A stretch of 64,000 nucleotides of DNA from positions 64,001-128,000 of the forward strand of contig JAYKHS010000028.1 in the NCBI GenBank assembly GCA_035285865.1. The letters are read 5' to 3'. Source of the DNA: Candidatus Sericytochromatia bacterium (GTDB lineage: Bacteria; Cyanobacteriota; Sericytochromatia; S15B-MN24; VGJW01). Made by a program: the position numbers and the translations under genes. Shown here piece after piece: positions 2,770 through 24,596 of the stretch; the first letter of the stretch is position 1; the number at the start of each line of letters is the position of its first letter. The notes beneath the pieces are model-generated. The model was not told the DNA's origin and made no database searches. It saw nothing but the letters and a program-made list of their open reading frames with translations.

Positions 2770-3351
2770 GTGGCCGTCCTCCACTACGGCAGGCGAGAGA
2801 TCCGCTCCCGGGTGGCCTATTTCGGTCCCGTGGGCTCGGGCAAGGCCTCGAATCTCTTGGCGTTGCAGGACCTCTGGCCCGTTGAGCGCCGGGGAGCCGT
2901 CGTCGAGGCGACCCCGGAAAGCGAACGCGCCGTGCGTTGTTTGCGCCTGCCCATGCTGGGTGACCCGGTCGGCGACTGGTCGGTGCGGTTCGAGGCCTTC
3001 ACGGTGCCCGGGCAGGCCCAGTTTCCGAGCACGCGGGCGAATCTGCTGGCCGGCGCCGACGGAGTCGTTTTCGTGGCCGACGCCGCCCCTGCCAGAAGAG
3101 AAGCGAACGTCGCCGCCTGGCACGAGTTGTTGGTCCACGTCGTGGCACAGGGCATCGATCCCGAGCGGATGCCCATCGTCATCCAGATCAACCACGCCGA
3201 TGTCCGCGACGCCTTGGGCGTGGGGGAGATTGCGTCGCAACTCGGGGTCGAAGTCCGCCCTTCCTTCATGGCCATCGCCCGGGACGGCAGAGGTGTGCTC
3301 GAGGCCTGGATGGCAGTCGAGGGCCTGATCCGCATGGACTGGCGTTCATGA
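2770..3351 (+). CDS. MglA-family small GTPase with degenerate motifs
   Basis: REIRSRVAYFGPVGSGKAS, FTVPGQ, GADGVVFVAD, PIVIQINHAD parallel MglA. Confidence 0.85.
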   Translation: MAVLHYGRREIRSRVAYFGPVGSGKASNLLALQDLWPVERRGAVVEATPESERAVRCLRLPMLGDPVGDWSVRFEAFTVPGQAQFPSTRANLLAGADGVVFVADAAPARREANVAAWHELLVHVVAQGIDPERMPIVIQINHADVRDALGVGEIASQLGVEVRPSFMAIARDGRGVLEAWMAVEGLIRMDWRS

Positions 3352-5288
3352 AGGCCGCCTCCTCTGGCATCGGCAGCGCCCGGCCAGGCAATCTGTGGCG
3401 CGAGGCCGACGGACTGTACGACTTCATGAGCCGTGCGGTTCTCCTGCTGGTCGCCGAGCTCGATGATGCCGACGTGGCCTTCATGGTGCGGGAGGACCCT
3501 TCGCTGCCGTGGCGGGTGTCTGCGTCCCGTCCCGAATGGGAGGCCCAGTTGACGATGGCCTCGATGAGCGGTTTGCTGGCCGGCGTTCCGGCGCAGGGCT
3601 TCGAGGGATGGCAGGTTCGCGATCTGGAAGTCGAGAAGCCCGTGGCTGCCCGGCTGCTGACACGGGGCCCGGCACCGGCACAGGAATCCTGCGATGGCCT
3701 GGCGGCCGGCATCTCCCTCGTCATCGCACGGGACCGTCTGGCTCGGGCGGATGCCGGCATCGGCGAGATCGGGCGGGTGGTCCAGGCCTTGCGCCAGTTG
3801 GCTTCCAACATCCACCAGGCCGAGGATCTTTCGCTGCTGGCCGAGGTCGTCTGTGCCTCGGTGGCTCGTGCCACGGGCGCAGAGGTGGTGGCGCTCTACC
3901 AGCTCGAGGGCGATGCCTTCCGATTGACCGAGGAAATCGGCGTGCATCGCCCGGGCGTTTCCGGCATGGCGGCTGCACTGGCTGCATCGCTTGCGCCGCG
4001 GCAGCCCATTCCCCGGGATGAGGCGGGCTTTCTCTCCCAGGCGCTTTGGGAGGGGCGTCCGGTGGCCATTCCCAATATGGCGGCTGCTGACGGCGCGCGT
4101 GTCGGGCTTGGCCATTTGGGGCTGATGTCCGCGATGGCGGCCCCGCTGCTGACGCCTCTGGACGACTTGGGCGTCCTGCTCGTGGGCAGCCGTGCACCGC
4201 GCCTCTTCAGTCCGACCGAATTGTCCGAGTTGTCCGAGCTGGCCCAGGCGGCGTCGGGAGCCTTGCTGACGTGGCGGCTCCACGCGCGTGCCCAGGAGGA
4301 GTCGCGCAAGGCCAGCGAGCTCATCGCCCGGTTGCATGACCTGACGCGCGCGACCCGTGAGGTCGGCAAGACGCTTGAGGCCAAGCACGCCTGCGAGGCC
4401 TGCGTGCGCCTGCTCCCGCAGTTCATGCGCCCTGCGGAGTGGGTTGATTGCTACCTCATCGAGGGCGACGCATGGCGGCTGGTGGCTGGCTCCAGTCCGC
4501 AGGACGCCAGCCCTCCCGAGTCCTGGCTCTACTACCTTGATCGTTCGGGCTATCCGCCGTCCTTGCGGCTCGAGTCCGATGCGCTGGCGGGCACCGGATT
4601 CGAGGATGCCGGACAGGTCCTGCTGTTTCCGATGCGCATGCAGCAGACCCTGCTTGGCCTGGTCGTCGTGGCGACGGAGCGCGACCTTGCCATGACCGGT
4701 CGGGACATGGCCGAGACGCTGGTGGCCCATGCGGCGTCGGCAGTCTTCAATGCCGAGCAGTGGCGACGGGCGCATGAGCGATCTATCACGGACCCGCTCA
4801 CGGGGGTCCACAACCGTCGGCACTTTGTCGACGTCTTCGAGCAGGAACTGGCCAAGGCCGCCCGTTATCACCGGGAGTTCAGCGTGATTCTGCTCGACAT
4901 CGATCACTTCAAGATGATCAACGATCGCCTGGGTCATCTGGCCGGGGACCAGATCCTGCGCGAGGTTGCGGCCCTGTTGCGCGACAACGTGCGCAAGGTC
5001 GATCTGGTCGCGCGCTACGGTGGGGAAGAATTCGCGTTGCTGTTGCCGGAGACCGGGGATGATGGTGCTCGTGCACTGGCCGAAAAGTTGCGGCATCGTT
5101 TCGAGGCACATCCCTTCAGCGACCAGGATCTGATGCCCGGGCGACAGGTCACGGCCAGTTTCGGGCATGCCTCCTTTGGGCTGGACGGCACGACTGCCGA
5201 GCAGCTGCTGCAGGCCGCGGACGAGGCTTTGTATGCCGCCAAGCGGGATGGCAGGAACCGGGTAGGTTCGCCGTCGAGGAGAGCGTGA
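3348..5288 (+). CDS. GAF-domain sensor diguanylate cyclase
   Basis: TDPLTGVHNRR, DIDHFKMIND..GH..GD, RKVD I-site plus RYGGEEF; GAF-like segments upstream; ATGA overlap with mglA-like gene. Confidence 0.93.
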   Translation: MKAASSGIGSARPGNLWREADGLYDFMSRAVLLLVAELDDADVAFMVREDPSLPWRVSASRPEWEAQLTMASMSGLLAGVPAQGFEGWQVRDLEVEKPVAARLLTRGPAPAQESCDGLAAGISLVIARDRLARADAGIGEIGRVVQALRQLASNIHQAEDLSLLAEVVCASVARATGAEVVALYQLEGDAFRLTEEIGVHRPGVSGMAAALAASLAPRQPIPRDEAGFLSQALWEGRPVAIPNMAAADGARVGLGHLGLMSAMAAPLLTPLDDLGVLLVGSRAPRLFSPTELSELSELAQAASGALLTWRLHARAQEESRKASELIARLHDLTRATREVGKTLEAKHACEACVRLLPQFMRPAEWVDCYLIEGDAWRLVAGSSPQDASPPESWLYYLDRSGYPPSLRLESDALAGTGFEDAGQVLLFPMRMQQTLLGLVVVATERDLAMTGRDMAETLVAHAASAVFNAEQWRRAHERSITDPLTGVHNRRHFVDVFEQELAKAARYHREFSVILLDIDHFKMINDRLGHLAGDQILREVAALLRDNVRKVDLVARYGGEEFALLLPETGDDGARALAEKLRHRFEAHPFSDQDLMPGRQVTASFGHASFGLDGTTAEQLLQAADEALYAAKRDGRNRVGSPSRRA

Positions 5289-11058: not shown

Positions 11059-12001
11059 GTCGCCTGCGGCTGCCCTCGGTCACCAGCCACGCTCCCTGTC
11101 CCGCCGTGACGGAGCCCAGCTCGCGCCAGCCCGGGGGCAGCGCGGCTTCAGGGGGGACGCAGGCGACAAGCCCGTAATCCTCGCCGCCGGCAAGCTGCCA
11201 CTGCCGAACGTCGGCTTCCGCGGCAACGGCCAATGCTTCCAGTGTGTCGTCTCCGGCCAGCTGTGCGTCCCGGATCTCGATGGCGACTCCTGAGGCCTCG
11301 GCGAGGGTTGCGGCAGAGGTGGCGAGGCCGTCCGAGTCGTCCATCAGGGCGAGACGCTCCATTTCGTACCAGGCGTCTGGCCAGGATGCCGGCTCAGGCC
11401 TGCGCTGGGCCTGCTCGGCACGGATGCGCACGGGCTCGGGGATGGCGGCCTCGGGATGCCGGAGGCACCACAGCCCCGCCGCGGCCCAGCCGAAGGGTCC
11501 GGACGCCACCAGTCGATCGCCGGGCCGCGCCGATCCACGGAGTACAGGGCGTAGCGTGGCACCCACGACCGTGACCGAGAGGCTGATGGGGCCTCGGCTG
11601 CCCGTGGTGTCACCTCCGACGACCGGCACGCCGAAGTGTCGGCATGCGTCGGCGAGTCCTGAGGCGAAGGCTTCCAGCCAGCTGGTCTCGAGATCGCCGG
11701 GAAGGGCCAGTCCAAGCACGCTCCAGAGTGGGTGCCCCCCCATGGCCCGGATATCCGAGACGTTCACGGCCAGTGCTTTCCAGGCGAGGTCTTCCGGGCT
11801 GAATGTGGCCCGCGTGAAGTGGATGTCTTCCACGAGCAAGTCGACCGTGGTCAGCAGGGACGTGTCTGAGGGTATGCGCGTCACGGCCGCGTCATCTCCG
11901 ATGCCGATCCAGGAAGCGGGCAGGCCGGTCCCGTCGAGATGTCGGGAAAGCACGTCGAGAATGCCGGCCTCCTTGATGGCGGCAAGGGTGGTTTTCTTCA
12001 T
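10988..12001 (-). CDS. thiL: thiamine-monophosphate kinase
   Basis: GIGDDAA, VEDIHF, NVSDIRAMGG, GGDT, DDSDGL, GGEDY motifs. Confidence 0.95.
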   Translation of the reverse strand: MKKTTLAAIKEAGILDVLSRHLDGTGLPASWIGIGDDAAVTRIPSDTSLLTTVDLLVEDIHFTRATFSPEDLAWKALAVNVSDIRAMGGHPLWSVLGLALPGDLETSWLEAFASGLADACRHFGVPVVGGDTTGSRGPISLSVTVVGATLRPVLRGSARPGDRLVASGPFGWAAAGLWCLRHPEAAIPEPVRIRAEQAQRRPEPASWPDAWYEMERLALMDDSDGLATSAATLAEASGVAIEIRDAQLAGDDTLEALAVAAEADVRQWQLAGGEDYGLVACVPPEAALPPGWRELGSVTAGQGAWLVTEGSRRRLTSRGWDHFLAVDPALPRRRTGP

Positions 12002-12132
12002 CTCTTCTTGACTCGGCTTTGGGCAAGTCTTGGGGTGATTCTCCAGATAATGAAGGCAGGACCCCAGACGTGACGATCTCCTCCGAAGCCTACCCCACTC
12101 CCGGCCAGTGCCGCACGGGGGAGACGGACCGC

Positions 12133-13182
12133 GTGCGTCGTGCATGTGGGGGCCCCTTGCTCGCCGCGATCGTGGCGCTGGCCACCACGGCTTGCGGTGT
12201 CACCGGAACCGGCATCCGCGATCTGGACCGTCCTGCCGCGGCCGCCCCCGATTTGCTGCCTGCGTTCGGTGGACAGGCCCAGCTCCTTCAGGGGGCTCCG
12301 GGTGGCGAGGCCTCCTGGCTTCGTCTCCAGGACGGCGCGCATCTGGTTGTCGTGGCCTCCGATCGACCCGGCGATCGGCATCTCTTCTTCGCGACCAGTG
12401 CCGACGGCCGCAACTGGTCGGCTTTCGTGCCGTTCACGACGGGCGCGCTGACGGACGTCGAGCCGGTGCTCTTCGCCTCTGCCCGCGGTGTCGAGTGCGT
12501 GTTTGCCTCCAATCGATGGCTTGCGCAGTACGCCCTCTACCGCACGACTTTCCGCGACGGGCGCTGGTCTGAGCCGGTTCGCCTCGAACTGGGGGCTGGT
12601 CCGCACCGTGCGCCGGCCGTCGTTCGCTCCGGGGACCGTTGGCTGCTTGCCTGGCAGGGACCCGATGGCGTGCGGGTGGCGTCCTCCGCGGACGGTCAGG
12701 CTTTCGGTCAGGGACGACTGGTTTTGGCGCAGCATGGTGATCCGACGGTGGCCGCGGTCGGTCAGCGGGTCGTCCTCGTGGCGCACCAGCGCAAGGCGCT
12801 GACGGCAAGCGTGCTCGACGGCGAGACATGGTCCGTGCCGGCACGGGTGCCCCTCGCGGCTCCGGCCTGGTCCCCGGCATTGGCCTCCGTGGCGACCGGA
12901 AGCGTGGCGCTGGCTTATGCGACCGCCCCCTCGGATCAGGCACCGGCTGCCCTGGGCCTTGCCCGCTGGGCAGATGCGCGCTGGACCGACATGGGCCGTG
13001 CGCTGTCCACGTCTGCCGAACTGGCCGCACCGGCATGGTGTGCCGGTCCCCAAGCACCCTTGTCGCTTCTGCTGGGTATGGACCTTTCAGGTCTCCAGCA
13101 GGGTCTCGCCCGTGTCACGTGGTCCTCCTTCCCGGAGGACGCCTCTGCCTCGTCGCCCGCCGGAGGTCCCGTCAACCCATGA
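12133..13182 (+). CDS. lipoprotein with Asp-box (BNR/sialidase-like) beta-propeller
   Basis: hydrophobic signal ending TTAC; Asp-boxes TSADGRNW and SSADGQAF; start uncertain (12070 or 12133). Confidence 0.65.
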   Translation: MRRACGGPLLAAIVALATTACGVTGTGIRDLDRPAAAAPDLLPAFGGQAQLLQGAPGGEASWLRLQDGAHLVVVASDRPGDRHLFFATSADGRNWSAFVPFTTGALTDVEPVLFASARGVECVFASNRWLAQYALYRTTFRDGRWSEPVRLELGAGPHRAPAVVRSGDRWLLAWQGPDGVRVASSADGQAFGQGRLVLAQHGDPTVAAVGQRVVLVAHQRKALTASVLDGETWSVPARVPLAAPAWSPALASVATGSVALAYATAPSDQAPAALGLARWADARWTDMGRALSTSAELAAPAWCAGPQAPLSLLLGMDLSGLQQGLARVTWSSFPEDASASSPAGGPVNP

Positions 13183-14501
13183 GTGCATCCATGACTGCCG
13201 ATCGCCGCCTGCTGGGCGAAGTGCTCGTCTCCGGCCAGTTCATCACGGCCGAGGACCTCAATCGGGCCTTGTCCGAGCAGCGGGCCACCAACGAGCGCTT
13301 GGGCGAGGTGCTGGTCCGTCTCGGCATCCTGTCCGAAATGGAGTTGCATGCGGTCCTCGCCTATCAGGGCGTAGGTGACATGACGCCAGCGGAGCAGGGC
13401 GCCGCGGTCCGCTACAAGTTGGGTGAGCTCCTGCTCAAGGCGCGTCGCGTCAGCAAGCCCCAGCTGGAGCTTGCGCTCGCCGAGCAGGAGCGTACCAACG
13501 AACGCCTCGGCGAGGTGCTGCTGCGACTCGGTCTGATCTCCGGCTCCGAACTCGAAGCCGTGTTGACGTGGCAGGATGATCATTCCCGTCAGGGGGCCAA
13601 GGCCGTTCGCTTCGTGCTGGGCGAGGTGCTGGTCGCCTCGAAGGTCATCACCCGCGATCAGCTCGAGCAGGCCTTGGCCGAGCAGCAGCTCTCGCGTCGC
13701 CAGATCGGGGAAATCCTCGTCGAGGCGGGTTTCGTCAAGCAGAACCAGATCCTCGAGGCCCTGCGCATTCAGGGCAAGCTGGTCGCAGCCTCGGTCATCG
13801 GCATCATCGGGGCCGCGGCACTGACGGGCTGCGGGACCGGAGCGAGCCTGACGGGCATGAGCGTGTCGGGACTGGCTGTCGATGCCAAGGGTAACCCCGT
13901 GGACAATGTCCGCGGGTCGCGCATTCCCTACAGCACGATGGTCCGGGATGTCCGGACCGTCGCCGGCATGCAGGCCACCCAGGACTTCGCCGATGGGTCC
14001 CGGACCGTCAAGGACGTGCCCTGGTTCCACCAGGCGGCCGTGACGCGGGACGGTTCGCCGGACAACACCTGCGCTCAGGCCGCGATGTCCAGCGTGCTTC
14101 ACTATTGGCAGGGCGACGCAGCACCCGCCTATCAGCAGGTGGTCAACGAATCGAACTACTTCAATCTCGCGACCAACCAAGGCACCATCACCGAGTACCT
14201 CAAGAAGAAGGGCCTCTCGGTCAAGGCTTACAAGAACGGGACGGTCAACTACCTGAAGAGTGCGGTGGACTCCGGAAAACCCGTCATCTGCATGTTGCAG
14301 TTCGAGGTGCCGCACTACATCGTCGTGGTGGGCTACAACGAAGCTCAGGGCACCATCATCTACCACGATTCGATCGACGGTCCCAATCAGACCCTGTCGG
14401 AGCGCAAGTTCCTCAAGCACTGGCACCAGACGTCCATGAAGGACATGCCGCTGCTGGGCGGAGGCAACTACGTGGGGCTTGCCATCGAAGCCTCCCGCTG
14501 A
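13179..14501 (+). CDS. triple MshEN-like domain + internal lipobox + C39-like cysteine peptidase
   Basis: six xLGExL...LxxxLxxQ half-motifs; KLVAASVIGIIGAAALTGC; VPWFHQ...NTCAQAA...PHYIVVVGY...YHDS; ATGA overlap with upstream gene. Confidence 0.85.
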   Translation: MSASMTADRRLLGEVLVSGQFITAEDLNRALSEQRATNERLGEVLVRLGILSEMELHAVLAYQGVGDMTPAEQGAAVRYKLGELLLKARRVSKPQLELALAEQERTNERLGEVLLRLGLISGSELEAVLTWQDDHSRQGAKAVRFVLGEVLVASKVITRDQLEQALAEQQLSRRQIGEILVEAGFVKQNQILEALRIQGKLVAASVIGIIGAAALTGCGTGASLTGMSVSGLAVDAKGNPVDNVRGSRIPYSTMVRDVRTVAGMQATQDFADGSRTVKDVPWFHQAAVTRDGSPDNTCAQAAMSSVLHYWQGDAAPAYQQVVNESNYFNLATNQGTITEYLKKKGLSVKAYKNGTVNYLKSAVDSGKPVICMLQFEVPHYIVVVGYNEAQGTIIYHDSIDGPNQTLSERKFLKHWHQTSMKDMPLLGGGNYVGLAIEASR

Positions 14502-14568
14502 CGGGATTCGGCGGCCTCTCCGCCCCCTTGACGGCAGGCCTGTCCAAGGGGGAACATGCCAATCCCCG

Positions 14569-14642
14569 GGGCGATTAGCTCAGTTGGTCAGAGCGCACGG
14601 TTCACATCCGTGAGGTCCACGGTTCAAGTCCGTGATCGCCCA
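14569..14642 (+). tRNA. tRNA-Val (anticodon CAC)
   Basis: GGGCGAT/ATCGCCC acceptor stem, D-arm GCTC/GAGC, anticodon loop TT-CAC-AT, T-loop TTCAAGT; CCA not encoded (CCT). Confidence 0.96.
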
Positions 14643-14647
14643 CCTCC

Positions 14648-14678
14648 AAGGTCGTCGGTGACTATCCGACGACCTTTT
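14648..14678 (+). terminator. intrinsic terminator after tRNA-Val
   Basis: AAGGTCGTCGG-loop-CCGACGACCTT then TT. Confidence 0.75.
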
Positions 14679-14770
14679 GCTTCGGCAGGTCTCCGGTTTT
14701 TGGTCGAAGCTTCAGCGCATCTTTGTTTCTGCTTAAGAAACCGCCCTCTCCGGCTGCCGACAACTCTTGC

Positions 14771-15550
14771 ATGAATCCCTCCTTCCTTCGCCGTGTCCGC
14801 CGACTCCCGGCTGCGCTCGGGGCGGTCGTCGCCTTGATGGGCCTTGTCGGTTGCGGACGCCCTGCGACGACTTCCGCGGTGCCCCGCGGTCCGGTCGCGC
14901 CCATGCTGCAGCCGTCGCCCCAGCAGCCCGTGCCCGGCCAGGACGGGGCCCGGATGGCGACCGAGATCCGCGGTCGGGTCGGCATGGCCTATCAGGGTGC
15001 CACGTCCATCCAAGCCAGCCTGAAGTCTTACATCCACAACGTTCAGACGGGCAAGACGGCCCGCTACGTGCTTGACAGCTGGTTCCAGAAGCCCGGTCGT
15101 TCCGCCTACAAGGTCCGTGAGTCGACCGAGGCCAGCACTATTGGCACCAAGATGATCGTCGACGGCAACGGACAGGTGCAGGTGCGCACCAAGTTCGCCG
15201 GCTTCTGGGTCAACACCACCCTGCCAGAAACCGACGAGCGGACAAGGACCGCGCGCGGAGACGGGATGTCGGATACCGCCTTGCCGCGCATGATGCAGGT
15301 TTTGCTCGATCCGCAGGCCCAGGTACAGTTCCTTGGTCAGGCTCAGGTGGCCGGCCGTCAGGTCTCGATTCTGGAACTCCGCAGCGCGATGATGCTGCCG
15401 CGCGTCACACACGAGCGCTATGCCATCGACATGGCGACAGGCATGCCCTACAGCCGCGAGTGCTACGAGGCCGGCAAGCTGACCTATCAGCTGACCATCG
15501 AACAGGTCCGCCTCAACCAGCCCGATCCGGCCGCCTTCCTGCTGCAATGA
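14771..15550 (+). CDS. lipoprotein, LolA-like/lipoprotein-sorting fold
   Basis: lipobox LVGC; WFQKPG, FLGQAQVAGR, YAIDMATGMP, C-terminal DPAAF resemble LolA-like carriers. Confidence 0.65.
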   Translation: MNPSFLRRVRRLPAALGAVVALMGLVGCGRPATTSAVPRGPVAPMLQPSPQQPVPGQDGARMATEIRGRVGMAYQGATSIQASLKSYIHNVQTGKTARYVLDSWFQKPGRSAYKVRESTEASTIGTKMIVDGNGQVQVRTKFAGFWVNTTLPETDERTRTARGDGMSDTALPRMMQVLLDPQAQVQFLGQAQVAGRQVSILELRSAMMLPRVTHERYAIDMATGMPYSRECYEAGKLTYQLTIEQVRLNQPDPAAFLLQ

Positions 15551-16798: not shown

Positions 16799-17731
16799 TT
16801 AGTGCATGCTCCACGTGCGTGAGGCTGCCACGCGGCCGATATTCTGCCTGAGTCGCTGGCCAATGCCAGGCTCCGCTGCGACCAGGCGAGCATAGTCCTC
16901 CAGGAGAAAGACCAGGGCCTTGCTGGCGGCGACAGCCGTGACCGTGGCACTGCGCACGGGTTTGCTCTGGATCAGGGCTGTCTCACCGACGATCTGATCC
17001 GGACCCAGACGCGCGAGCGCGAACGGACGACCATTCTGAATCACGGAGACCTCGAGTTGGCCTTCGAGGATCAACAGGAAGCTCGTGGCCGGATCTCCGG
17101 TCTGGAAGAGCTCCATGCCTTCGGCAAGAGGGACCACGCGTGCCACGGACTCGAGGGCGAGGCGTTGTTCATCCGTCAGACCCGAGAAGACCGGATGCCG
17201 CCGGATGCGTTCGAGTCGCGCCGCGCGCTCCTCCGAGATGCCCGTGGGTTTGGGCATCGCGAACTTGCCAGTCTTCGGGGCCTGAGCGTTGGCTGGTTCG
17301 GGCTCAGGCTTCTTCTTGGACTGGCTCGCCCACTCCCGCGTGGCCACGACCCGCCCGAGGTTGCTCCGAAGCGTCCTGCCCAGCTTGGGGTCCTGCTCGC
17401 TCAGCGCCTGATAGCCTGCGTACATGAAGCGATAGAGCTTGGCATCGGAAACGGCCACGACATCGGCTCGTCGTTCGGTGTCGTGCTGGATCAGGGGCAT
17501 CTCGCCCACAAGCTGTCCCGGAGCGATGGTGGCGACCGCCATGTCCTGAACCCGCACCTCGAGACGGCCTTCCACCAGCATGAAGAAGGCGTCTGCCTCG
17601 TCTCCCGTTCGGATGACGGCCTGACCCGCCTTTGCCGTGACCCGTTCCGCAATGGCAAAAAGCGCATCCAACTCAGCGGCCGAGAGGCCCATGAACGCAG
17701 GCAGCATCTGCAATCGGGCATGGTTCAACAT
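16799..17731 (-). CDS. tandem cyclic-nucleotide-binding domain protein
   Basis: two cNMP domains (GEMPL...RRADV; GETAL...RSATV); no HTH or other output domain. Confidence 0.88.
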   Translation of the reverse strand: MLNHARLQMLPAFMGLSAAELDALFAIAERVTAKAGQAVIRTGDEADAFFMLVEGRLEVRVQDMAVATIAPGQLVGEMPLIQHDTERRADVVAVSDAKLYRFMYAGYQALSEQDPKLGRTLRSNLGRVVATREWASQSKKKPEPEPANAQAPKTGKFAMPKPTGISEERAARLERIRRHPVFSGLTDEQRLALESVARVVPLAEGMELFQTGDPATSFLLILEGQLEVSVIQNGRPFALARLGPDQIVGETALIQSKPVRSATVTAVAASKALVFLLEDYARLVAAEPGIGQRLRQNIGRVAASRTWSMH

Positions 17732-17818
17732 CCTGCGGCTTCCTCTGCCATGCACCTACCCGTCCGGAGAGCAGGTAAACGGGGGTGGCGACGGCCACAG
17801 ACGGACCCACGGTCGTCG

Positions 17819-19825
17819 GTGCATCGTCAAACCGTGCTGCAACGTCGACGTGTCGCCCGAGGACGGCACTTGCCCGTGGTCGCGGCCCTGCTCTGGGTCG
17901 CGGACCTCCCCGTTGCGCGCGCGGCACCCGGGCCTGTGGCTGGTCCCGTGGCGCCTGCCGTGCACGAACGCCTCGGGGAGCTGCGTCTGGTGGGGCTGGC
18001 CGGGGTTGTCCGCAGCAGGTTCAAGTTGTCGAATCCGGATCGCGAGGTCCTGGACCTGTTCGGTGTGCAGCCTCCTCCGGCCTACTGCGCCTCGCGCGTC
18101 TGGGAGGATGCTCGTGGCCGGGTGCTTTTGCGCAGCGGTTGGGATGCTGCGCTGCGCCGCTGGCGCTTCGTCCGTTCTGCCGGAGACGGCGCGGGTGCCG
18201 ACGTCGAGGATGCCGGCGGCACGTTGGTCTTCCGTGGGCCGGGGCTGCACGCCGCCCTGAAGGGTGCATTCGCCCCCGTGATGATGCGTCCGAATGGACG
18301 TACCGGTGCGACGGCCTCGGTCGGCGTTGCACCCGGCACGGCGACCGCCGGGACGCCGCGTCCGACGGGCCCTGCGGTCCCGACTGCGCCACCCGTTCGT
18401 CTGGTCACGCGGCCTTTCGACCCACCCGAGCCATTGGCAACATGGGGGCCGTTGCTGCCTCTGTGGCAACCCGCGCCCCGTGCATCCGTCCGACCGATCC
18501 CATCCGTGCGTCCTGCGAATCCGACACCTGCTCCCAGGCACTCAATGCTTCCGCCGGCGACGGCGGCCGTTGCTGTCGTCCTGCCACCGCTTCCGCTACC
18601 CCCGTTGCATGGCGTTCATCCTCGTCAGACCGTGCGGACTGGCCCGGAGTTGTTGGGCCCCTTCCTGCCGGCCATGTATCTCGGACCTCCGGTGCCCCGG
18701 GCCGTTGGGCAGCCAGCGGTCGGGGCTGCCGACGGTGGGCCGCATGGGCGTGCCCTTGCTGCAAACGGATCTTCTCGACCGGCGTGGGAAGTCGTCCGTC
18801 ACGGTACCGATGACGAGGGTGAACCGGATGTGCTGGCGCAGGCACCTTGGCCGCGGTCGCCGCAGCGCATCGAGCGACTGTCGCTCCGGAAGCAGCGCCA
18901 GGACACGGTCTTCGAGGTCGTGGCAGCCGGGGCGCTGACGGTCTGGATGGAGGCCCAGCCCCGTGACGCGCGCTGGATCCTGCGCTTCCCCAGGGCCGAA
19001 GTCCCGGCGGCCCCGCCACGTCCGCGCGGGGCGACGCGCCGACTTGCGCTCGGGCGCGACACGCGATCGTGGATACTCACGCTGGAACTGGATCCCGGCC
19101 AGTATGACGTCGAGGAGACGCGCATCAATGATGGTCGCGGCCTGCAATTGCGTTTCCATCGCCGCAGAACCGTGCCGGGGGATCGACCGGTGGTCGTGCT
19201 CGATCCGGGTCACGGCGGGGCGGACCCTGGTGCACGGGGCCCGATGGGGGTCACGGAGAGTCAGGTCACGCTCGACGTGTCCCGACGCCTGCGTCCCCTC
19301 CTGGAACATGCCGGCTTCCACGTGGTGCCCACCCGGACGATCGATGCCGCCGTTCGCCTCGGCGATCGCGCAGCACTTGCCGAAAGCCTGGACGCCACTG
19401 CCCTGATCAGCATCCATTGCAATTCCAGCCCGTTGCGCGAGGCCCGGGGCATCGAGACGTGGTTCCGCCACGAGGCCGGGTCGGGGCTCGCGCGCAAGGT
19501 GCACGAAGCGCTGGTCAAGGCCACGGGGCGTCCAGATCGAGGTGTCCGCCAGGGGCGTCTGATGGTGCTCAAGACGCCCGGCCTGCCGGGTGTCCTGGTG
19601 GAGATAGGGTTCCTGTCCCATCCCGACGAGGGCAACAGGCTCCTCGACGAGGAGCATCAGGCCCAGATGGCCGAGGGACTGGCACGCGGCCTTCGGCTGC
19701 TGGTCGAATCTGGCGAAGGAGCTGGAACCGTGGGGCGGCGGCGTCTACAGGACCAGCGAACTGGTGAGCCAAAGGTAGGAGCCCTTGGCATTCCCGAAAA
19801 GGCCCCCCACCGTCCCCGTGGCTAG
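17819..19825 (+). CDS. N-acetylmuramoyl-L-alanine amidase (Amidase_3) with long Pro-rich N-terminal region
   Basis: VVLDPGHGG, E, ISIHCN, VLVEIGFLS Zn-ligand motifs; signal-like LPVVAALLW..ARA; start uncertain. Confidence 0.85.
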   Translation: MHRQTVLQRRRVARGRHLPVVAALLWVADLPVARAAPGPVAGPVAPAVHERLGELRLVGLAGVVRSRFKLSNPDREVLDLFGVQPPPAYCASRVWEDARGRVLLRSGWDAALRRWRFVRSAGDGAGADVEDAGGTLVFRGPGLHAALKGAFAPVMMRPNGRTGATASVGVAPGTATAGTPRPTGPAVPTAPPVRLVTRPFDPPEPLATWGPLLPLWQPAPRASVRPIPSVRPANPTPAPRHSMLPPATAAVAVVLPPLPLPPLHGVHPRQTVRTGPELLGPFLPAMYLGPPVPRAVGQPAVGAADGGPHGRALAANGSSRPAWEVVRHGTDDEGEPDVLAQAPWPRSPQRIERLSLRKQRQDTVFEVVAAGALTVWMEAQPRDARWILRFPRAEVPAAPPRPRGATRRLALGRDTRSWILTLELDPGQYDVEETRINDGRGLQLRFHRRRTVPGDRPVVVLDPGHGGADPGARGPMGVTESQVTLDVSRRLRPLLEHAGFHVVPTRTIDAAVRLGDRAALAESLDATALISIHCNSSPLREARGIETWFRHEAGSGLARKVHEALVKATGRPDRGVRQGRLMVLKTPGLPGVLVEIGFLSHPDEGNRLLDEEHQAQMAEGLARGLRLLVESGEGAGTVGRRRLQDQRTGEPKVGALGIPEKAPHRPRG

Positions 19826-21157
19826 ATCCAGCCTGAAGAAGCGCAGATCCAATCCGAGGCCCACGCCACCCATCGGATAGGCACCGCCGAGGCGGACACC
19901 GGTGCGCAGGGCCAGCCAGCGTCCCAGCGGCCGGCCTTCGAGGCCCATGGATACCTGAGGGTTGCGTGAGACCCCGAAGCCCTCGCCAAGTCCCTGGGAA
20001 AGATCCATGGCGAAGCTGTAGGGAGACCGGGCATCTCCGAGAATGTCCGACAGCCTGCCGCGCAGGCCGAGGTCGCCTTCCCAGGCGAGGCCACCGCGCA
20101 GCAGCAGTGGCACGGTGACCGTTCGCCGAGCTTCACCGTCTCGTGAGCCGATTCCGTACTGCGTGACGTCCGAAAAGTCCGGGGCCTTGGGCGTGCCGCC
20201 CGAGAGGTCCAGCCCCAGGGTGGTCGGCGGCAGGACCAGGTCGACGGTCTTGTCCGTCCAAGGGCCTGCCTGCAAGGTGCTGCCGATGTTCGCTGCCATG
20301 ACGCTCCACGTGACGTTGTCATTCCAGCGATTGGCGAAGCCGATGTCGAACAGCAGGCTTTCCTGCGGCCGGGGTGGCGCGATGGCCGTCGGTGCGGAGA
20401 GCACGCCTTCGTAGCGGAGGTGACCATTGGCTGACAGACGTCCCTCCTCGTCGACCGTAAGGGCAGAACCCGAGGCCTCCGTGACGGAAGCAAATGCCAT
20501 CGCCGGGATATAGCGCGCCGTGATCCCCAGGGACGAGGCCTTGCCCAAGCCCAGGGGCAGGGGAATGGCGTGCGAGACGGCGACATTCGCGACGCCGTAG
20601 GCTGCTGCCCCCTGCAAGCCGGCGAGCGGAATCGAGGAGGCGTTGGCGTTGCCACGCAGGAGGAGGTCGACGAGCCCTCGGGGAATGCCGATGTTGCGGA
20701 TGCTGGTGTCGAGGGTGGCCGAGATGCCGGTGCGGAGGAACGGACTGGCAACGGCGACGCGCACCCCGCCATCCCCGATCAGGCCCACGCCTTCTTCGGG
20801 GAGACCGGCAGCGAACGTGGCCCATTCCGCCTCTGTGAACGTGCGGCGCTTGCCATCAGCATCCGGCAGCAGGGTGCGCAGCGTGTCGAAGGAGGCAAAG
20901 GTGTTGCCTAATCCGGCGCCGACGCTGGAACTGAACAGCAGGAAATTGCCCGGCGCGCGCCGAGGCATGGCCAGCAGGGCAGGGTTCCACAGGCCTTGAT
21001 CGGCTTCGTCCGCGATGGCGGATTGGGCGCCACCCATGCCCATCGCCCTTGCCGTGCTGCTGCCTGAGGCTGAGGCCGGGTTCGCCAGGCCGGCAAGGCT
21101 CAGCAGGGCGAGGCCAAGGCCGGCCACGACGGGCTTGCGGTTGCGCAAGGGCATCAT
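19745..21157 (-). CDS. outer-membrane beta-barrel protein (FadL/TraF/DUF5723-like)
   Basis: signal peptide then ARAMGMGGA..A.....LWNPALLA; amphipathic strands at C-terminus. Confidence 0.7.
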   Translation of the reverse strand: MMPLRNRKPVVAGLGLALLSLAGLANPASASGSSTARAMGMGGAQSAIADEADQGLWNPALLAMPRRAPGNFLLFSSSVGAGLGNTFASFDTLRTLLPDADGKRRTFTEAEWATFAAGLPEEGVGLIGDGGVRVAVASPFLRTGISATLDTSIRNIGIPRGLVDLLLRGNANASSIPLAGLQGAAAYGVANVAVSHAIPLPLGLGKASSLGITARYIPAMAFASVTEASGSALTVDEEGRLSANGHLRYEGVLSAPTAIAPPRPQESLLFDIGFANRWNDNVTWSVMAANIGSTLQAGPWTDKTVDLVLPPTTLGLDLSGGTPKAPDFSDVTQYGIGSRDGEARRTVTVPLLLRGGLAWEGDLGLRGRLSDILGDARSPYSFAMDLSQGLGEGFGVSRNPQVSMGLEGRPLGRWLALRTGVRLGGAYPMGGVGLGLDLRFFRLDLATGTVGGLFGNAKGSYLWLTSSLVL

Positions 21158-23604
21158 CGGGCACCTCCCGAGGCCTTGAGCAGCTCGGGTGACAGGAGGA
21201 CGCCGAGGTAGGCCTTGAGGCGGAGGCGCAACTCTGCCGAGTTCCGGATCTCGAGTGCTTGGCCGTTGCTTCCCGACGAAACCGCACGGATGCTCAGGTT
21301 ACGGATGTCCGGCAGCGCGGCCACCTCGTCCGGTCCGAGATCCAACAGCGACACCGCCGTACTGCCGTCCGCGCTACCTAGGCGCAGCGTCCGCGAAAAC
21401 GCCGCGCTGCCGTCCTGTTTCAGAAAGTCCAACAGGATGTCGATGGGCAGGCCCCAGCCGTTGTCGATGCGGAACTCGAGCGACACGCGGCGTAGATGCT
21501 TGCGCAACTGGTCCAGCGTCGTGGCGTCCAAGCTGGCGGACAGGTCGAGCGGGCTGGTCGAGGCCGGCGGCCCGGGCCGCTGTCTGCCGGGGCCGAACTC
21601 GTTGTAGCGCAGGGCCAGTGGCATGGCCAGCTTCAGGGAACCGCCCATCCGGTCGGCACGGGTCAGGCGCACGGAGGCCCCCTCCCCCACGAGGAGGCGG
21701 GAGTTGATGCGCAGTTCATCGATGCCCAGCGCGATCAAGTCCAGCAGGTCGGTGTTCCGTTCGTTCAGTTCCAGGACCGTGGATTGCGTGGCCGCAGGCG
21801 CACCGGCAGCGAATGCCCCGTCGAAGGCGTCGGGTCCGGTCGTCTCGAAGCGGACGGAGGCTGTCGCCGGGCAGCCGTTGCTGCCGGGAAAGAGGTCCGC
21901 ACAAGTCTGGGCCGAGGCCGAAGCCGAGATGCTCGCTTCGAGGCGTGGGTCGAACCGTCCGACGATGCCACTGGCATTGTCGAGGCGGACTTGCATCGTG
22001 AAACGCCCCGGCAGGATGCCGTAATCAAGGAAGTCCGAGGGCAGAGCGATGGGTGCTTGCGCCGGTACGGCCTCGGTTCTGTCGATCTTCGCCTGCAAGG
22101 TCGTGATGCCGATAGGCGAAAGCGAGACCGTGCCCGACGCTTCCTGGCTGGTGACGAGGGTTGCGGGCACCCGGACGCCGCCGCGAAGGTGACTGCGGTC
22201 TGCCGTCGTGGCCAGAAGGTTCACCTGGGCCGCGATGGCGATGCCCTTGATGGGCGTGCCTTGGTCATCCGTCAGGGCCCGGGGACGCATCTTCGTGCCG
22301 GCGAGGTCCAGCGTCCACGTGACGGTCTGTCGTGCGTTGATGCCGAGGCGCAGGCCGCCGCCCGGCAGCGTGCTCGAGGGAGGGGCAGTGCCCGCATCGA
22401 CCGTGGCTCGGGCCGACGTGAGGTTTTCGAGACCCTCGAATGTCAGGTCCAGGTCCAGATCGGCATCGAGGCCGTTGGCCATCGTCAGCCGCAGCGAGCC
22501 CGAGGCGAGGTCGACTTCCTCCAGGTCCAGGATGCCCTGGTCCTGCGGCAGCTGAGCAGCGATGTCGACGGCCTTGCGGATGGCCTGCTTCAAGGCGTCG
22601 GGAGTCGGGAATCGCGGTGAACCGGCGTCATTGCGGCCCATCGCGGGCAGGTTCACGTCCACCTCGTCGGGCAAGATGGTCACGGCCGTCGTGCCCACGG
22701 CAAACGAACCGTTGTCGAGGTCGATGTCTCCGATGCGTGTGCCCACCGGCACCGTGCCGCTGATCCGGACGGCCATAGAAAGGGGGGGCAGGAGCTCACC
22801 GGTCAACGGCATGGTGACGTTCGCCGCGCTCTTGGCTCCGATGGCACGCACTACGCGTTGCAACTCCGTGCCGGCCCTGTCCGTCAGCACCATGGTCAAG
22901 TTCGCGTTCGTGACTGTGTCGTTGGTGATGGGGATGACCAGCTCGGAACCTGCTTTGAGGCGCATCGCCACGACTTCCGGGGGCATCTCGACCGGAATGC
23001 GGGTGGTGGGGCTGGGCCCGAAGGCCAGTTCGGGCACAGTCACATTGGTGAGGAGAGGGTTTGCCAAGGCCGTCGCGAGCGGGATGTTCACGGGGCCGGC
23101 GATGGGATCCACGACGGGAATGTTCACGTTGCCGAGGCCCGTGTCTGCGAGAAGGATTGGAGCTGGGGCAGGCACGGTCGTGCTCAGGTCCGGCAGATTG
23201 ATGGGCGCGGACGGGATGTCGAAGCTGAGCGGGATGGGGATGTCCTTGTCGAGGAACGTGCCGAGTTCGACGGGTCCGAAGGTGGCCACCTCGGAAGCGT
23301 AGGTCGGAACGTCGTTGGAGTCCGTCGACCAGGAGCTGGCAGCCGGACCCTTGGCAAGTGACTTCTGGAAGACCAGGTCCCCGAAAGTGGCCTTCGTGTC
23401 GCCGAGTTGCACCGTCAGGGCCACGGGGAAGTCCGGCAGTGCCGACAGGAAGTCAGGGGAGGACTTGCCCTCGCTGTCGGTGGTCTTCGGGATGCGATCC
23501 GCCAGGTACAGCACGTCCTGAATGCCGCAGCCGGCGAGCACCATCGCGAGTGCGGAGGCAGCGGTCAGGAGGGACGGGCTCTGGCGCAAGCAGGGATCCT
23601 CCAT
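21154..23604 (-). CDS. large beta-rich lipoprotein of unknown function
   Basis: lipobox VLAGC; ~810 aa; ATG 23604 or TTG 23589 (GGAGG SD precedes the TTG); overlaps the barrel start. Confidence 0.75.
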   Translation of the reverse strand: MEDPCLRQSPSLLTAASALAMVLAGCGIQDVLYLADRIPKTTDSEGKSSPDFLSALPDFPVALTVQLGDTKATFGDLVFQKSLAKGPAASSWSTDSNDVPTYASEVATFGPVELGTFLDKDIPIPLSFDIPSAPINLPDLSTTVPAPAPILLADTGLGNVNIPVVDPIAGPVNIPLATALANPLLTNVTVPELAFGPSPTTRIPVEMPPEVVAMRLKAGSELVIPITNDTVTNANLTMVLTDRAGTELQRVVRAIGAKSAANVTMPLTGELLPPLSMAVRISGTVPVGTRIGDIDLDNGSFAVGTTAVTILPDEVDVNLPAMGRNDAGSPRFPTPDALKQAIRKAVDIAAQLPQDQGILDLEEVDLASGSLRLTMANGLDADLDLDLTFEGLENLTSARATVDAGTAPPSSTLPGGGLRLGINARQTVTWTLDLAGTKMRPRALTDDQGTPIKGIAIAAQVNLLATTADRSHLRGGVRVPATLVTSQEASGTVSLSPIGITTLQAKIDRTEAVPAQAPIALPSDFLDYGILPGRFTMQVRLDNASGIVGRFDPRLEASISASASAQTCADLFPGSNGCPATASVRFETTGPDAFDGAFAAGAPAATQSTVLELNERNTDLLDLIALGIDELRINSRLLVGEGASVRLTRADRMGGSLKLAMPLALRYNEFGPGRQRPGPPASTSPLDLSASLDATTLDQLRKHLRRVSLEFRIDNGWGLPIDILLDFLKQDGSAAFSRTLRLGSADGSTAVSLLDLGPDEVAALPDIRNLSIRAVSSGSNGQALEIRNSAELRLRLKAYLGVLLSPELLKASGGAR

Positions 23605-23624
23605 CGTGCTACCATCGGTGCACC

Positions 23625-24596
23625 ATGATAGATCACGGGGACGGACCGTTCCTTCCTGCCGATTGGGAGGCGGGCTGGCAGGTCTGGCTGCGTGCCGCAT
23701 TGTGGCAGCGGGCCGTTGCGGAACAGGGCGCAGGGGATGCCGCCCGTCGGGCTGTCCTCCAGCGGCAGGTCCCCGATGTCGCGCCCCTCGTCTCGGCGGA
23801 CTGGGTCGGCGCTTTTGCGGGCACGGGCTCCGCGCCTCCCTGGCCGGGCGGCTTGCCCGAGAAGCTTGCCGGGATGCTTGAGGAGCTCGAGGCTGCCCTG
23901 CTGCGGATCGGTTTCTGCGAGGTGCCCTCGGCCTACATGGCCTGGTTGGACCCGGGCTGGGGCGCGTGGCCGCCGGCGGCGCTTGCGCCGCGCCCTGTGG
24001 AGCGCGACGAGACCGGCTTCGTGCCGTTGCCCGTCGGTGAGGTCGCGCTGCCCCTTGCCTGGCCTGCGGCCATCGCGTCGGTGGGCCAGCCCGTGGGAGG
24101 TTGTCCGCCCAGGGACTGGTCTGCATTGCTCCTGCTGGCGCGGTCACTGCGCCGCGCCCGGGCCGGGATGCCGGCCGTCCTGGACCTCGGGGAAGAGTTC
24201 CCCCGTGGCGCTGTCGTTGCCGGAGTGGCCGAGCGGTTGCATGAAGGTCTGCTGGCCTCGGCCCTGCCCGTCTCCGCGTTGGCCGACGTCAGGGCCGGAA
24301 TCGGAGCCCTGGGTGACGGAGCGGTGCTTCGCGGAGGTGCGCTTTATGCGGTCCTCGACGGCTTGCGTGAGGAGCCCGTGATGCCCTGGGAGCTCCAAGC
24401 GGGTGCTTGGCTGGCCTTTCGCACCATGAGGGCTGGATGGTCGGCCCAGGCCCTTGCGCATGCCGGAAGCCCGGCCGAGGCCACCGAACGCCTGGGAGCG
24501 ATGGTCGGGGCCTTCATGGAGCTCGTGCGCAAGTCCCTGGAGACGGCTGCGCTGCATCGCCTGTTGCGGGATGCCGTGCCCGGGAGGCCCGCATGA
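23625..24596 (+). CDS. hypothetical protein
   Basis: Trp/Ala-rich helical ORF; ATGA overlap with dcd. Confidence 0.6.
   Translation: MIDHGDGPFLPADWEAGWQVWLRAALWQRAVAEQGAGDAARRAVLQRQVPDVAPLVSADWVGAFAGTGSAPPWPGGLPEKLAGMLEELEAALLRIGFCEVPSAYMAWLDPGWGAWPPAALAPRPVERDETGFVPLPVGEVALPLAWPAAIASVGQPVGGCPPRDWSALLLLARSLRRARAGMPAVLDLGEEFPRGAVVAGVAERLHEGLLASALPVSALADVRAGIGALGDGAVLRGGALYAVLDGLREEPVMPWELQAGAWLAFRTMRAGWSAQALAHAGSPAEATERLGAMVGAFMELVRKSLETAALHRLLRDAVPGRPA

Follow-up and report, generated by a model that had tools for sequence, protein, structure and literature searches.

We analyzed a 64,000-nucleotide stretch of DNA from a Candidatus Sericytochromatia bacterium (Cyanobacteriota; GenBank assembly GCA_035285865.1, contig JAYKHS010000028.1, positions 64,001 to 128,000 of the forward strand), hereafter called the window. 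Our subject is a gene whose product places three predicted sensor domains for c-di-GMP (cyclic dimeric guanosine monophosphate, a biofilm messenger), of the MshEN_N type, ahead of an internal lipoprotein signal and a C39-like peptidase domain (Table 1). Its reading frame contains no internal stop, and its start codon overlaps the stop codon of the preceding gene (ATGA), which encodes a beta-propeller lipoprotein. In the AlphaFold2 model, the precursor forms three four-helix bundles and a helix spanning residues 188-214; confidence is low near the lipobox, and a confidently predicted papain fold follows. From the features described below, we are confident that the gene product, a predicted lipid-anchored envelope peptidase, has a genuine export signal behind the three predicted sensors; signal assignments throughout are based on motifs and conservation. 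A scan of positions 11900-14800 was uninformative, finding no promoter-like sites and three terminator-like sites versus 1.4 expected.

Table 1. Positions in the window of the peptidase gene, the parts of its product and the upstream lipoprotein gene.
Feature	Position	Strand	Remarks
Whole gene	13179..14501	+	Precursor of 440 residues with three MshEN_N domains, a lipoprotein signal and a C39-like peptidase; AlphaFold2 mean predicted local distance difference test (pLDDT) 81.7
MshEN_N domain 1 (residues 11-63)	13209..13367	+	NF053729 best stretch 12-63; four helices; contact residues retained
MshEN_N domain 2 (residues 80-132)	13416..13574	+	NF053729 match; AlphaFold2 helices; contact residues retained
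MshEN_N domain 3 (residues 146-198)	13614..13772	+	Final helix doubles as n-region of the predicted signal
Internal lipoprotein signal	13773..13832	+	Gly199, Lys200, 17 uncharged residues ending in the lipobox Leu-Thr-Gly, then Cys218
Mature part	13833..14498	+	Short tether, beta-hairpin extension, papain-fold C39-like domain
Codons of Gln285, Cys298, His379, Asp397	14031, 14070, 14313, 14367	+	Catalytic set
BNR/Asp-box beta-propeller lipoprotein gene	12133..13182	+	Signal peptide ordinary and N-terminal, with its lipobox Cys at 12193

A preliminary description of this gene, made from its letters, had recognized three tandem MshEN-like domains, a lipobox (LTG, then Cys218) directly behind them and a C39-like domain with Cys, His and Asp, and had proposed profile searches for MshEN and Peptidase_C39_2. 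Both profiles matched above their cut-offs: NCBIfam NF053729 (MshE-related c-di-GMP-binding domain) matched three times over residues 11-198 (155.8 bits versus a cut-off of 38), and Pfam Peptidase_C39_2 (PF13529) matched residues 279-398 (E 4e-11; 44.1 bits versus a cut-off of 24). The Cys218 codon was placed correctly at 13830, as were the catalytic codons.

The sensor domains retain the ligand contacts of MshE

A 53-residue unit, made of two 24-residue motifs and a 5-residue spacer, maps without gaps onto all three domains. A profile of the leader aligns to Vibrio cholerae MshE (PDB 5HTL; E 1.5e-11), and the model of a related leader superposes on the 5HTL structure as a four-helix bundle (Z 6.3; root-mean-square deviation 1.6 over 58 residues). 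Ligand binding by MshE rests on Gly11 and Gly40, two leucine triads, and Gln32 and Gln61 (PMC5013675). Each of the three domains retains the equivalents of these glycines, of the triads (10-54-58 and 25-29-39) and of both glutamines, or replaces them conservatively. We compared two sequence sets, an alignment of 75 homologues of the peptidase (P0001-P0074 and P0085; about 72 full length, some partial) and 47 leaders. All three domains of the protein have intact contacts for guanine stacking and by Gln, and these positions are kept across both sets; the Gly11 and Gly40 equivalents are invariant in the peptidase set, and Gln198 is kept in 75/75 homologues and 47/47 leaders. The MshEN_C subdomain is absent from the 440-residue protein.

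The preliminary description had cautioned that the first half-motif of each pair lacks the canonical Arg and Gly, so that binding may be altered. As a description this is accurate: the position of MshE Arg9 holds Leu11, Lys80 and Val146 in domains 1, 2 and 3, and the turn position of MshE Gly18 holds Gln20, Arg89 and Lys155. For the missing arginines, the suspicion of impaired binding is weakened by two published results, as changes of charged residues such as Arg9 cost MshE less than fivefold in binding (PMC5013675) and Lys or Leu in place of the Arg raised the affinity of Thermus PilF (6 nM and 2 nM; PMC11731258). Under a consensus extended to Arg, Lys or Leu at motif position 1, Leu11, Arg40, Lys80 and Arg109 fit; Val146 and Gln175, the latter replacing Arg in the second half-motif of domain 3, do not, and domain 3 strays furthest.

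These departures could be taken to mean that the repeats no longer sense c-di-GMP and serve instead for targeting or holding, by attaching to a partner in the cytoplasm or by retarding export, much as an enlarged autotransporter signal extension would. In addition to the loss of the Arg9 equivalent from all three domains, Gln stands for Arg38 in domain 3 of 71/74 sequences and His for Gln61 in domain 1 of 12/69 homologues, and some motif-bearing domains, such as PilF GSPII-A and Deinococcus PilB_3, do not bind (PMC11731258, PMC5013675). However, the changes observed in XpsE, which does not bind (PMC5013675), are all absent here, the Gly11 and Gly40 equivalents are invariant in the peptidase set, and two of the three Arg9 replacements are those that raise affinity in PilF. 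We consider loss of sensing improbable, and judge from the retained contacts that the leader very likely binds c-di-GMP.

The genome contains seven matches to GGDEF, and in the window a diguanylate cyclase gene with GAF-like and GGDEF domains (3348-5288, +) lies about 8 kb upstream of the peptidase gene. Other open reading frames (ORFs) of this genome also carry MshEN_N domains. One (G000:C14:38630-40465, +) has two of them followed by a long helical region and no signal-like segment, and similar ORFs recur across the order; two short proteins made up of MshEN_N repeats alone, four in one (C3:26659-27453) and two in the other (C22:85358-85750), are candidate stand-alone c-di-GMP receptors. A further gene in the window (16799-17755, -) encodes two cyclic-nucleotide-binding domains and no output domain.

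A conserved lipoprotein signal follows the last sensor

Lipoprotein signals consist of a basic residue, an uncharged hydrophobic region (h-region) and a lipobox with its Cys, and the lipobox normally lies within about 35 residues of the N-terminus. The precursor has these elements in the order expected of a Sec and signal peptidase II substrate, with an invariant Cys, but that Cys is residue 218 and no conserved internal start precedes it. Judged by its sequence, the protein works like a lipoprotein precursor without being a canonical one.

Conservation at the junction between sensor and signal was high among the 75 homologues. Cys218, the loss of which from homologues would have told against the preliminary description, is kept in 75/75, as are Leu195, Gln198 and each of the four catalytic residues (Gln285, Cys298, His379, Asp397). 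Position -1 to Cys218 is Gly or Ala in 75/75, position 200 is Lys or Arg in 74/75, the distance from Gln198 to Cys218 is 20 residues in 74/75, and no acidic residue occurs between these two in any of the 75. Four paralogues lacking sensors (L111, L112, L122, L124) keep the same Cys behind an ordinary lipoprotein signal peptide, and therefore the mature part appears to be an ordinary lipoprotein. Others carry two, three or four sensors; overall, the number of sensors ranges from 0 to 4 while the junction is unchanged. In the AlphaFold2 model, helix 188-214 runs unbroken from the ligand-contact residues Ile191, Leu195 and Gln198 into the hydrophobic stretch (pLDDT 62-77 at its end).

The genome encodes LspA and two Lgt proteins. 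Among its nine MshEN-bearing ORFs, a hydrophobic stretch follows the domain only in the peptidase ORF. A lipobox pattern by itself is weak evidence, because a crude scan of the long ORFs of this genome for an internal lipobox matched 11 of 1830, many of them probably with over-long start calls; as such starts confound this count, we dropped it as a chance control. Considering the conserved residues, we think it likely that the leader is cleaved at the signal peptidase site. Substrates of twin-arginine translocation (Tat) carry a twin-arginine motif just ahead of the h-region. We rejected export by Tat, as no twin arginine is conserved, and Arg173-174 lies 26 residues ahead of Lys200 at a place where the family consensus is Lys-Lys.

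An internal start or an assembly error is a poor fit

The preliminary description had found no standard start codon at signal-peptide distance from the lipobox and had named internal initiation as an outcome that would overturn it. Its observation held: no in-frame ATG, GTG or TTG occurs in the 45 codons before Cys218 of this gene, and none is conserved across leaders. A rival reading is that the frame yields two products or is an artefact, with an internal start producing an ordinary lipoprotein and the repeats belonging to a separate product or to a faulty assembly. The ATT codon of Ile197, which in the window is preceded by GAGG, would suit such a start, as would an ATG at position 200 in 18/47 leaders and Met201 in one family. 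We rejected the ATT, as the codon is not conserved (of 30 loci, 19 have ATC, six ATT and five CTG), and the ATG at position 200 would be a poor start, because no n-region would remain. Further, 19/47 leaders have no ATG, GTG or TTG at positions 183-200, a ribosome-binding site precedes the 5' start in many relatives, and dozens of genomes have the fusion in an open frame. One RNA-library contig covers positions 13660-13966, and with them the junction, without gaps, which is weak independent support against an assembly error. In these RNA data one run holds 7% of the words, and the contigs come from a relative and cover 13119-13353 and 13508-13966 and none of the peptidase core; transcription is not implied. 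We therefore regard an internal start or artefact as very improbable. Three leader genes (L063:5968-7037, L083:2676-3910, L087:5914-6561) are interrupted at or before the signal or end there, which may reflect sequencing error or decay.

The leader is found on unrelated exported proteins

The 47 weaker matches of the homologue search mostly carried the same leader on other C-terminal domains. At a threshold of E 1e-25, a profile built from the leader alone (47 sequences) matched 40/47 genomes of the class and 0/104 from the rest of the phylum; the match extends into the hydrophobic stretch in 36 of the 47, and three more genomes have shorter versions below threshold (L116-L118). We then scanned GTDB contigs with the leader and considered the best 80 of 388 loci. 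Loci with a complete junction occur in the Nitrospirota, the Thermodesulfobacteriota (Geobacteraceae, Smithella, Syntrophorhabdus), records labelled Myxococcota or Pseudomonadota, and the Sericytochromatia. The 15 cargos scanned from these loci include fn3 with immunoglobulin (Ig) repeats, CAP, a cytochrome c with paired CXXCH motifs and a beta-sandwich protein and, behind a lipobox, Ig with glycoside hydrolase family 5 (GH5), a beta-helix and an unnamed lipoprotein family. With Sel1, DUF6242-like and other proteins, at least 10 unrelated cargos carry the leader in all, with signal peptidase I or II sites.

The same profile, run against 1.84 billion representative sequences, found 206 at E 1e-30 or better. 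Among the best 150 of these, the match extends to the hydrophobic stretch in 119, which include three other multi-MshEN proteins; a strong h-region (12-residue mean hydropathy of at least 1.8) is present in 111 of the 119. The cargo clusters among them, 30 cargos having been scanned with Pfam, are pilin-like (63), fn3/Ig (10), C39 (7), Sel1-type (5), cytochrome c (3), unnamed lipoprotein (2) and Hpt-led (2), with 10 singletons. Five representatives of about 1170 residues (P0196, P0197, P0204, P0207, P0226) have Hpt domains and many MshEN repeats ahead of a hydrophobic stretch, an Ala-x-Ala motif and TSP3/dockerin-like repeats, a far longer form of this junction.

The name "pilin-like" depends mainly on gene context, because fold matches to pilins are weak (best Foldseek pilin E about 0.008; VIA-align best Z 7.5, pilins Z 5-6). 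These beta-sandwich cargos share their locus with a PapD-type chaperone or usher gene in 19/28 loci, often between SCPU pilins and the chaperone. They also occur with ordinary signal peptides and with one sensor. In ten pilin-like proteins (P0272, P0275, P0277, P0278, P0282-P0286, P0288) the leader is eroded; the sensor is gone and its last helix persists before the h-region. Four leader genes with GH5, beta-helix or fn3 cargo (L053, L058, L074, L080) adjoin a family 4 glycosyltransferase gene, which suggests polysaccharide loci.

Small residues at positions -3 and -1 mark the site cut by signal peptidase I. In 32 distinct fn3 fusions, position -1, just ahead of the domain start, is Ala in 32/32 and position -3 is Ala, Gly, Ser or Val in 32/32, at 23-24 residues after the Gln. 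A looser test placed an Ala/Val-x-Ala site within the expected range for 63/81 of the pilin-like fusions; these counts come from related sequences and so are not independent. Fourteen other lipoprotein fusions have a Gln-to-Cys distance of 15-22 residues. As read from these motifs, the type of cleavage site follows the cargo.

The leaders of CAP and cytochrome c cargos are 70% identical, compared to 46-51% for C39 leaders across families. In the leader tree, CAP and cytochrome c leaders are sisters (support 100/95), as are those of GH5 and the unnamed lipoprotein (100/98), and a branch with 100/100 support sets the C39 leaders apart; because the root is not fixed, we claim no donor. Single genomes can hold several leader genes: there are three in Geobacter sp. 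OR-1 (two with fn3 and one with CAP cargo; locus L060, on NZ_BAZF01000015.1, is a signal peptidase I version), four in another genome (two with fn3, two with cytochromes) and two in a Nitrospirota genome. In the order of Geobacter sp. OR-1, a leader gene is found in 35/121 sampled genomes, and the junction is signal-like in 29/29 loci read. The search for MshEN repeats with an internal lipobox on other cargos, which the preliminary description had proposed, thus recovered the same leader on many unrelated exported proteins. On the evidence of these sequences, the leader is portable and has been joined to different exported proteins in several phyla; its architecture and conservation, the exchange of cargos and the selection of cleavage motifs can all be read from the sequences.

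The peptidase domain and its predicted propeller partner

The mature domain combines a papain fold with the Gln-Cys-His-Asp set, which places it among C39-like peptidases. Foldseek matched the model to Bacillus anthracis 3ERV (E 5.9e-4) and to the ComA peptidase domain (E 2.6e-3). Pfam found no ATP-binding cassette (ABC) transporter domain in the 440-residue protein, which is therefore not the C39 domain of a peptidase-containing ABC transporter, and the protein scored 24 bits against the PA2778 family (NF033920), below the cut-off of 150; a literature search on that family gave no helpful lead. Searches with the peptidase domain alone added little: nine matches among 212 candidate distant relatives gave no functional clue, the Atlas returned generic C39-like clusters only, and phmmer found nothing significant in the PDB.

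The upstream product, for which we chose an in-frame GTG start, was recognized weakly by domain searches (Pfam BNR_2 E 2e-4, below cut-off; Atlas sialidase-like clusters 0.90-0.91), and its relatives also have an ordinary lipobox. The coupling of the peptidase gene to an Asp-box lipoprotein gene, noted in the preliminary description, extends to other genomes: the propeller gene is present in 27/27 genomes of the order and directly upstream of the peptidase gene in 26, the last being broken across contigs. ESMFold2 predicted a complex of the two proteins with a score of 0.90, versus 0.00 for the best of three controls; runs agree in at least 72% of contacts, and partner pLDDT is at least 85. 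The mark set for this score is reached by 116/157 solved complexes and 2/215 mismatched pairs, counts that hold only roughly for the alignments used. The predicted interface takes in His379, Asp397 and residues 399-403. In the PDB, the propeller has sialidases and glycoside hydrolases as its relatives by sequence, so that no similar complex is evident for the predictor to recall. These are model predictions, as are the folds, and from them we conclude that the propeller lipoprotein probably binds the peptidase. The preliminary description had noticed neither this pairing nor the signal peptidase I sites on other cargos.

Downstream of the peptidase gene, after a tRNA-Val gene (14569-14644), a lipoprotein gene (14723-15550, +) has a weak match to the SCO4651 family and a position conserved only within the family; by eye, we take its product to be a LolA/LppX-like candidate. 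Of two adjacent envelope genes (19745-24147, -), one encodes 470 residues that match TraF_2 weakly; the product of the other is a large lipoprotein without a Pfam match.

A proposed signal peptide with a built-in sensor

These observations suggest the following scheme. Translation from the 5' ATG, which the sequence supports, would give the whole precursor, the signal peptide of which would have a 198-residue cytoplasmic n-region consisting of three c-di-GMP receptor domains. Going by the conserved signal features, residues 201-217 would insert through Sec with the N-terminus inside and the C-terminus outside, the sensors staying in the cytoplasm and the peptidase crossing the membrane. Lgt would lipidate Cys218, and LspA would cut before it. 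The mature peptidase would pair with the co-encoded propeller lipoprotein, which is predicted to lie at the active-site rim as an inhibitor or substrate adaptor. In the weakest step, c-di-GMP bound to the leader would set the amount of precursor that is exported or matured: the ligand would order and stabilize the shared helix and so favour export at high c-di-GMP, while unliganded precursor would stall or be degraded.

We judge the chances evenly balanced that this is a cleavable signal peptide with a built-in sensor, through which c-di-GMP sets export or maturation of the cargo. If such control exists, high c-di-GMP is the somewhat likelier permissive state, because surface and attachment proteins are numerous among the cargos and the signal helix begins with the last ligand-binding helix. 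The occurrence of the leader on many unrelated cargos suggests that the messenger may control export protein by protein. We tentatively propose, at a little short of even chances, that in several phyla c-di-GMP-bound MshEN domains in the n-region license Sec export or signal peptidase release of any cargo attached to them, be it an envelope peptidase, a chaperone-usher pilus subunit, an adhesin or a multiheme cytochrome. A single genome would then have a small post-translational c-di-GMP regulon marked out by its signal peptides, which in the Sericytochromatia would arm a peptidase that meets a constitutively exported propeller.

Several observations weigh against this scheme. The apo domain of PilF is already folded and rigid, and the ligand causes limited change (PMC11731258); we therefore do not expect a large switch from one domain, although the Gln equivalent to Gln198 is flexible in apo PilF (PMC11731258). 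One of the 102 representatives with a cargo of at least 60 residues (P0249, among the singletons) has a cytoplasmic receiver-LuxR cargo, and the five Hpt-bearing representatives have about 960 residues before a similar segment, an arrangement closer to that of an anchored protein. In loci L026-L030 the peptidase gene has no propeller gene beside it, and the predicted interface is not more conserved than the rest (peptidase 0.51 versus 0.55, propeller 0.43 versus 0.43). To these is added the ATG at position 200 discussed above.

The preliminary description had named two outcomes, gated export and a freed membrane-tethered receptor. The limited response of PilF to ligand (PMC11731258) is also consistent with constitutive cleavage. 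The by-product would then be a membrane-tethered triple c-di-GMP receptor, freed together with the cargo and acting as a local sink, a landmark or, after intramembrane proteolysis, a signal. This would fit all conserved features, cleavage sites and intact ligand contacts alike, and proteins of a stand-alone kind exist, both as (MshEN_N)2 entries in Supplementary Table 4 of PMC5013675 and as several short multi-MshEN ORFs in this genome. It would leave unexplained, however, why the leader sits on so many exported proteins, several per genome, and why the spacing from Gln198 to Cys218 is fixed at 20 residues, and we consider it unlikely.

That fixed register, together with the predicted continuity of the helix from ligand site into membrane, would also suit an uncleaved single-pass protein in which c-di-GMP binding inside switches the outside domain through the helix, a one-gene counterpart of LapD-LapG. 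The very long leaders of five representatives point the same way, and RsiV shows that a signal peptidase site can remain uncut (PMC6066255). Yet lipobox and Ala-x-Ala sites are under strong selection, the distance from Gln to Cys is just 15 residues in 7/14 other lipoprotein cargos, which is short for a stable anchor, and Gly- and Thr-rich tethers come after the Cys. One allosteric coupling common to unrelated cargos is also unlikely, and we give an uncleaved transducer little credence.

Comparison with known systems

Secretion is known to be controlled by c-di-GMP either at the machines, by way of their ATPases (MshE, PilB, GspE), or by way of receptors that stand apart, LapD being an example. 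If real, a sensor built into the signal peptide would move this control to the level of the single cargo. Chaperone-usher pili, which are not known to have a cytoplasmic ATPase, would gain a direct link to c-di-GMP. The leader would also be a transferable part that could be fused to a reporter. Leader-bearing proteins are mis-annotated by tools that restrict the search for a signal peptide to the N-terminus.

In a literature search that left subscription journals largely outside its coverage, we found no published description of sensor, signal and cargo in this arrangement. MshEN_N with a signal peptide and exported cargo is absent from Supplementary Table 4 of PMC5013675, in which the nearest row, compared by its table entry alone, is MshEN_N - Peptidase_M23 of Acaryochloris; the passages of PMC12943098 considered do not treat the architecture. 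The parts are known, and within this coverage no account in print of their arrangement and portability came up; for the gating itself, the odds are about even.

The sensor domains share with MshEN/MshEN_N of MshE (5HTL) and Thermus PilF GSPII-B the tandem 24-residue motifs, the four-helix bundle, the Gly residues, the leucine triads and the Gln residues. The MshEN partners given in PMC5013675 are cytoplasmic ATPases, receivers, cyclases, kinases and glycosyltransferases, whereas here the partner is an exported cargo. The peptidase has the fold and Gln-Cys-His-Asp set of other C39-like peptidases (PF13529, 3ERV, the PA2778 family) and differs from them in its lack of an ABC transporter fusion, its score below the PA2778 cut-off and its predicted propeller partner.

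The outcome would resemble that of LapD-LapG-LapA in Pseudomonas fluorescens, in that c-di-GMP inside the cell would govern the activity of a protease beyond the cytoplasm (PMC3032553). There, LapG is sequestered by LapD, a HAMP-GGDEF-EAL receptor on a chain of its own (PMC3032553), whereas here the MshEN sensor is part of the peptidase chain and is predicted to be cut off. No HAMP-GGDEF-EAL or LapG-family Pfam match was found in the 440-residue protein or eight neighbouring ORFs, the rest of the genome not having been searched for LapD. Bacillus subtilis RsiV likewise joins a cytoplasmic domain to a membrane segment, and its signal peptidase site, which is cleaved in a ligand-dependent manner, lies a long way behind the N-terminus (PMC6066255). 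RsiV senses lysozyme outside and frees a sigma factor inside (PMC6066255); here the ligand would be inside, the freed part would be an exported cargo, and there are versions for signal peptidases I and II. The extended signals of autotransporters and two-partner secretion proteins share an n-, h- and c-region signal behind an extra N-terminal piece, but that piece is about 25 residues long (PMC2805444), in contrast to the 55-270 residues of folded, predicted ligand-binding domains that here precede the signals of many Sec cargos.

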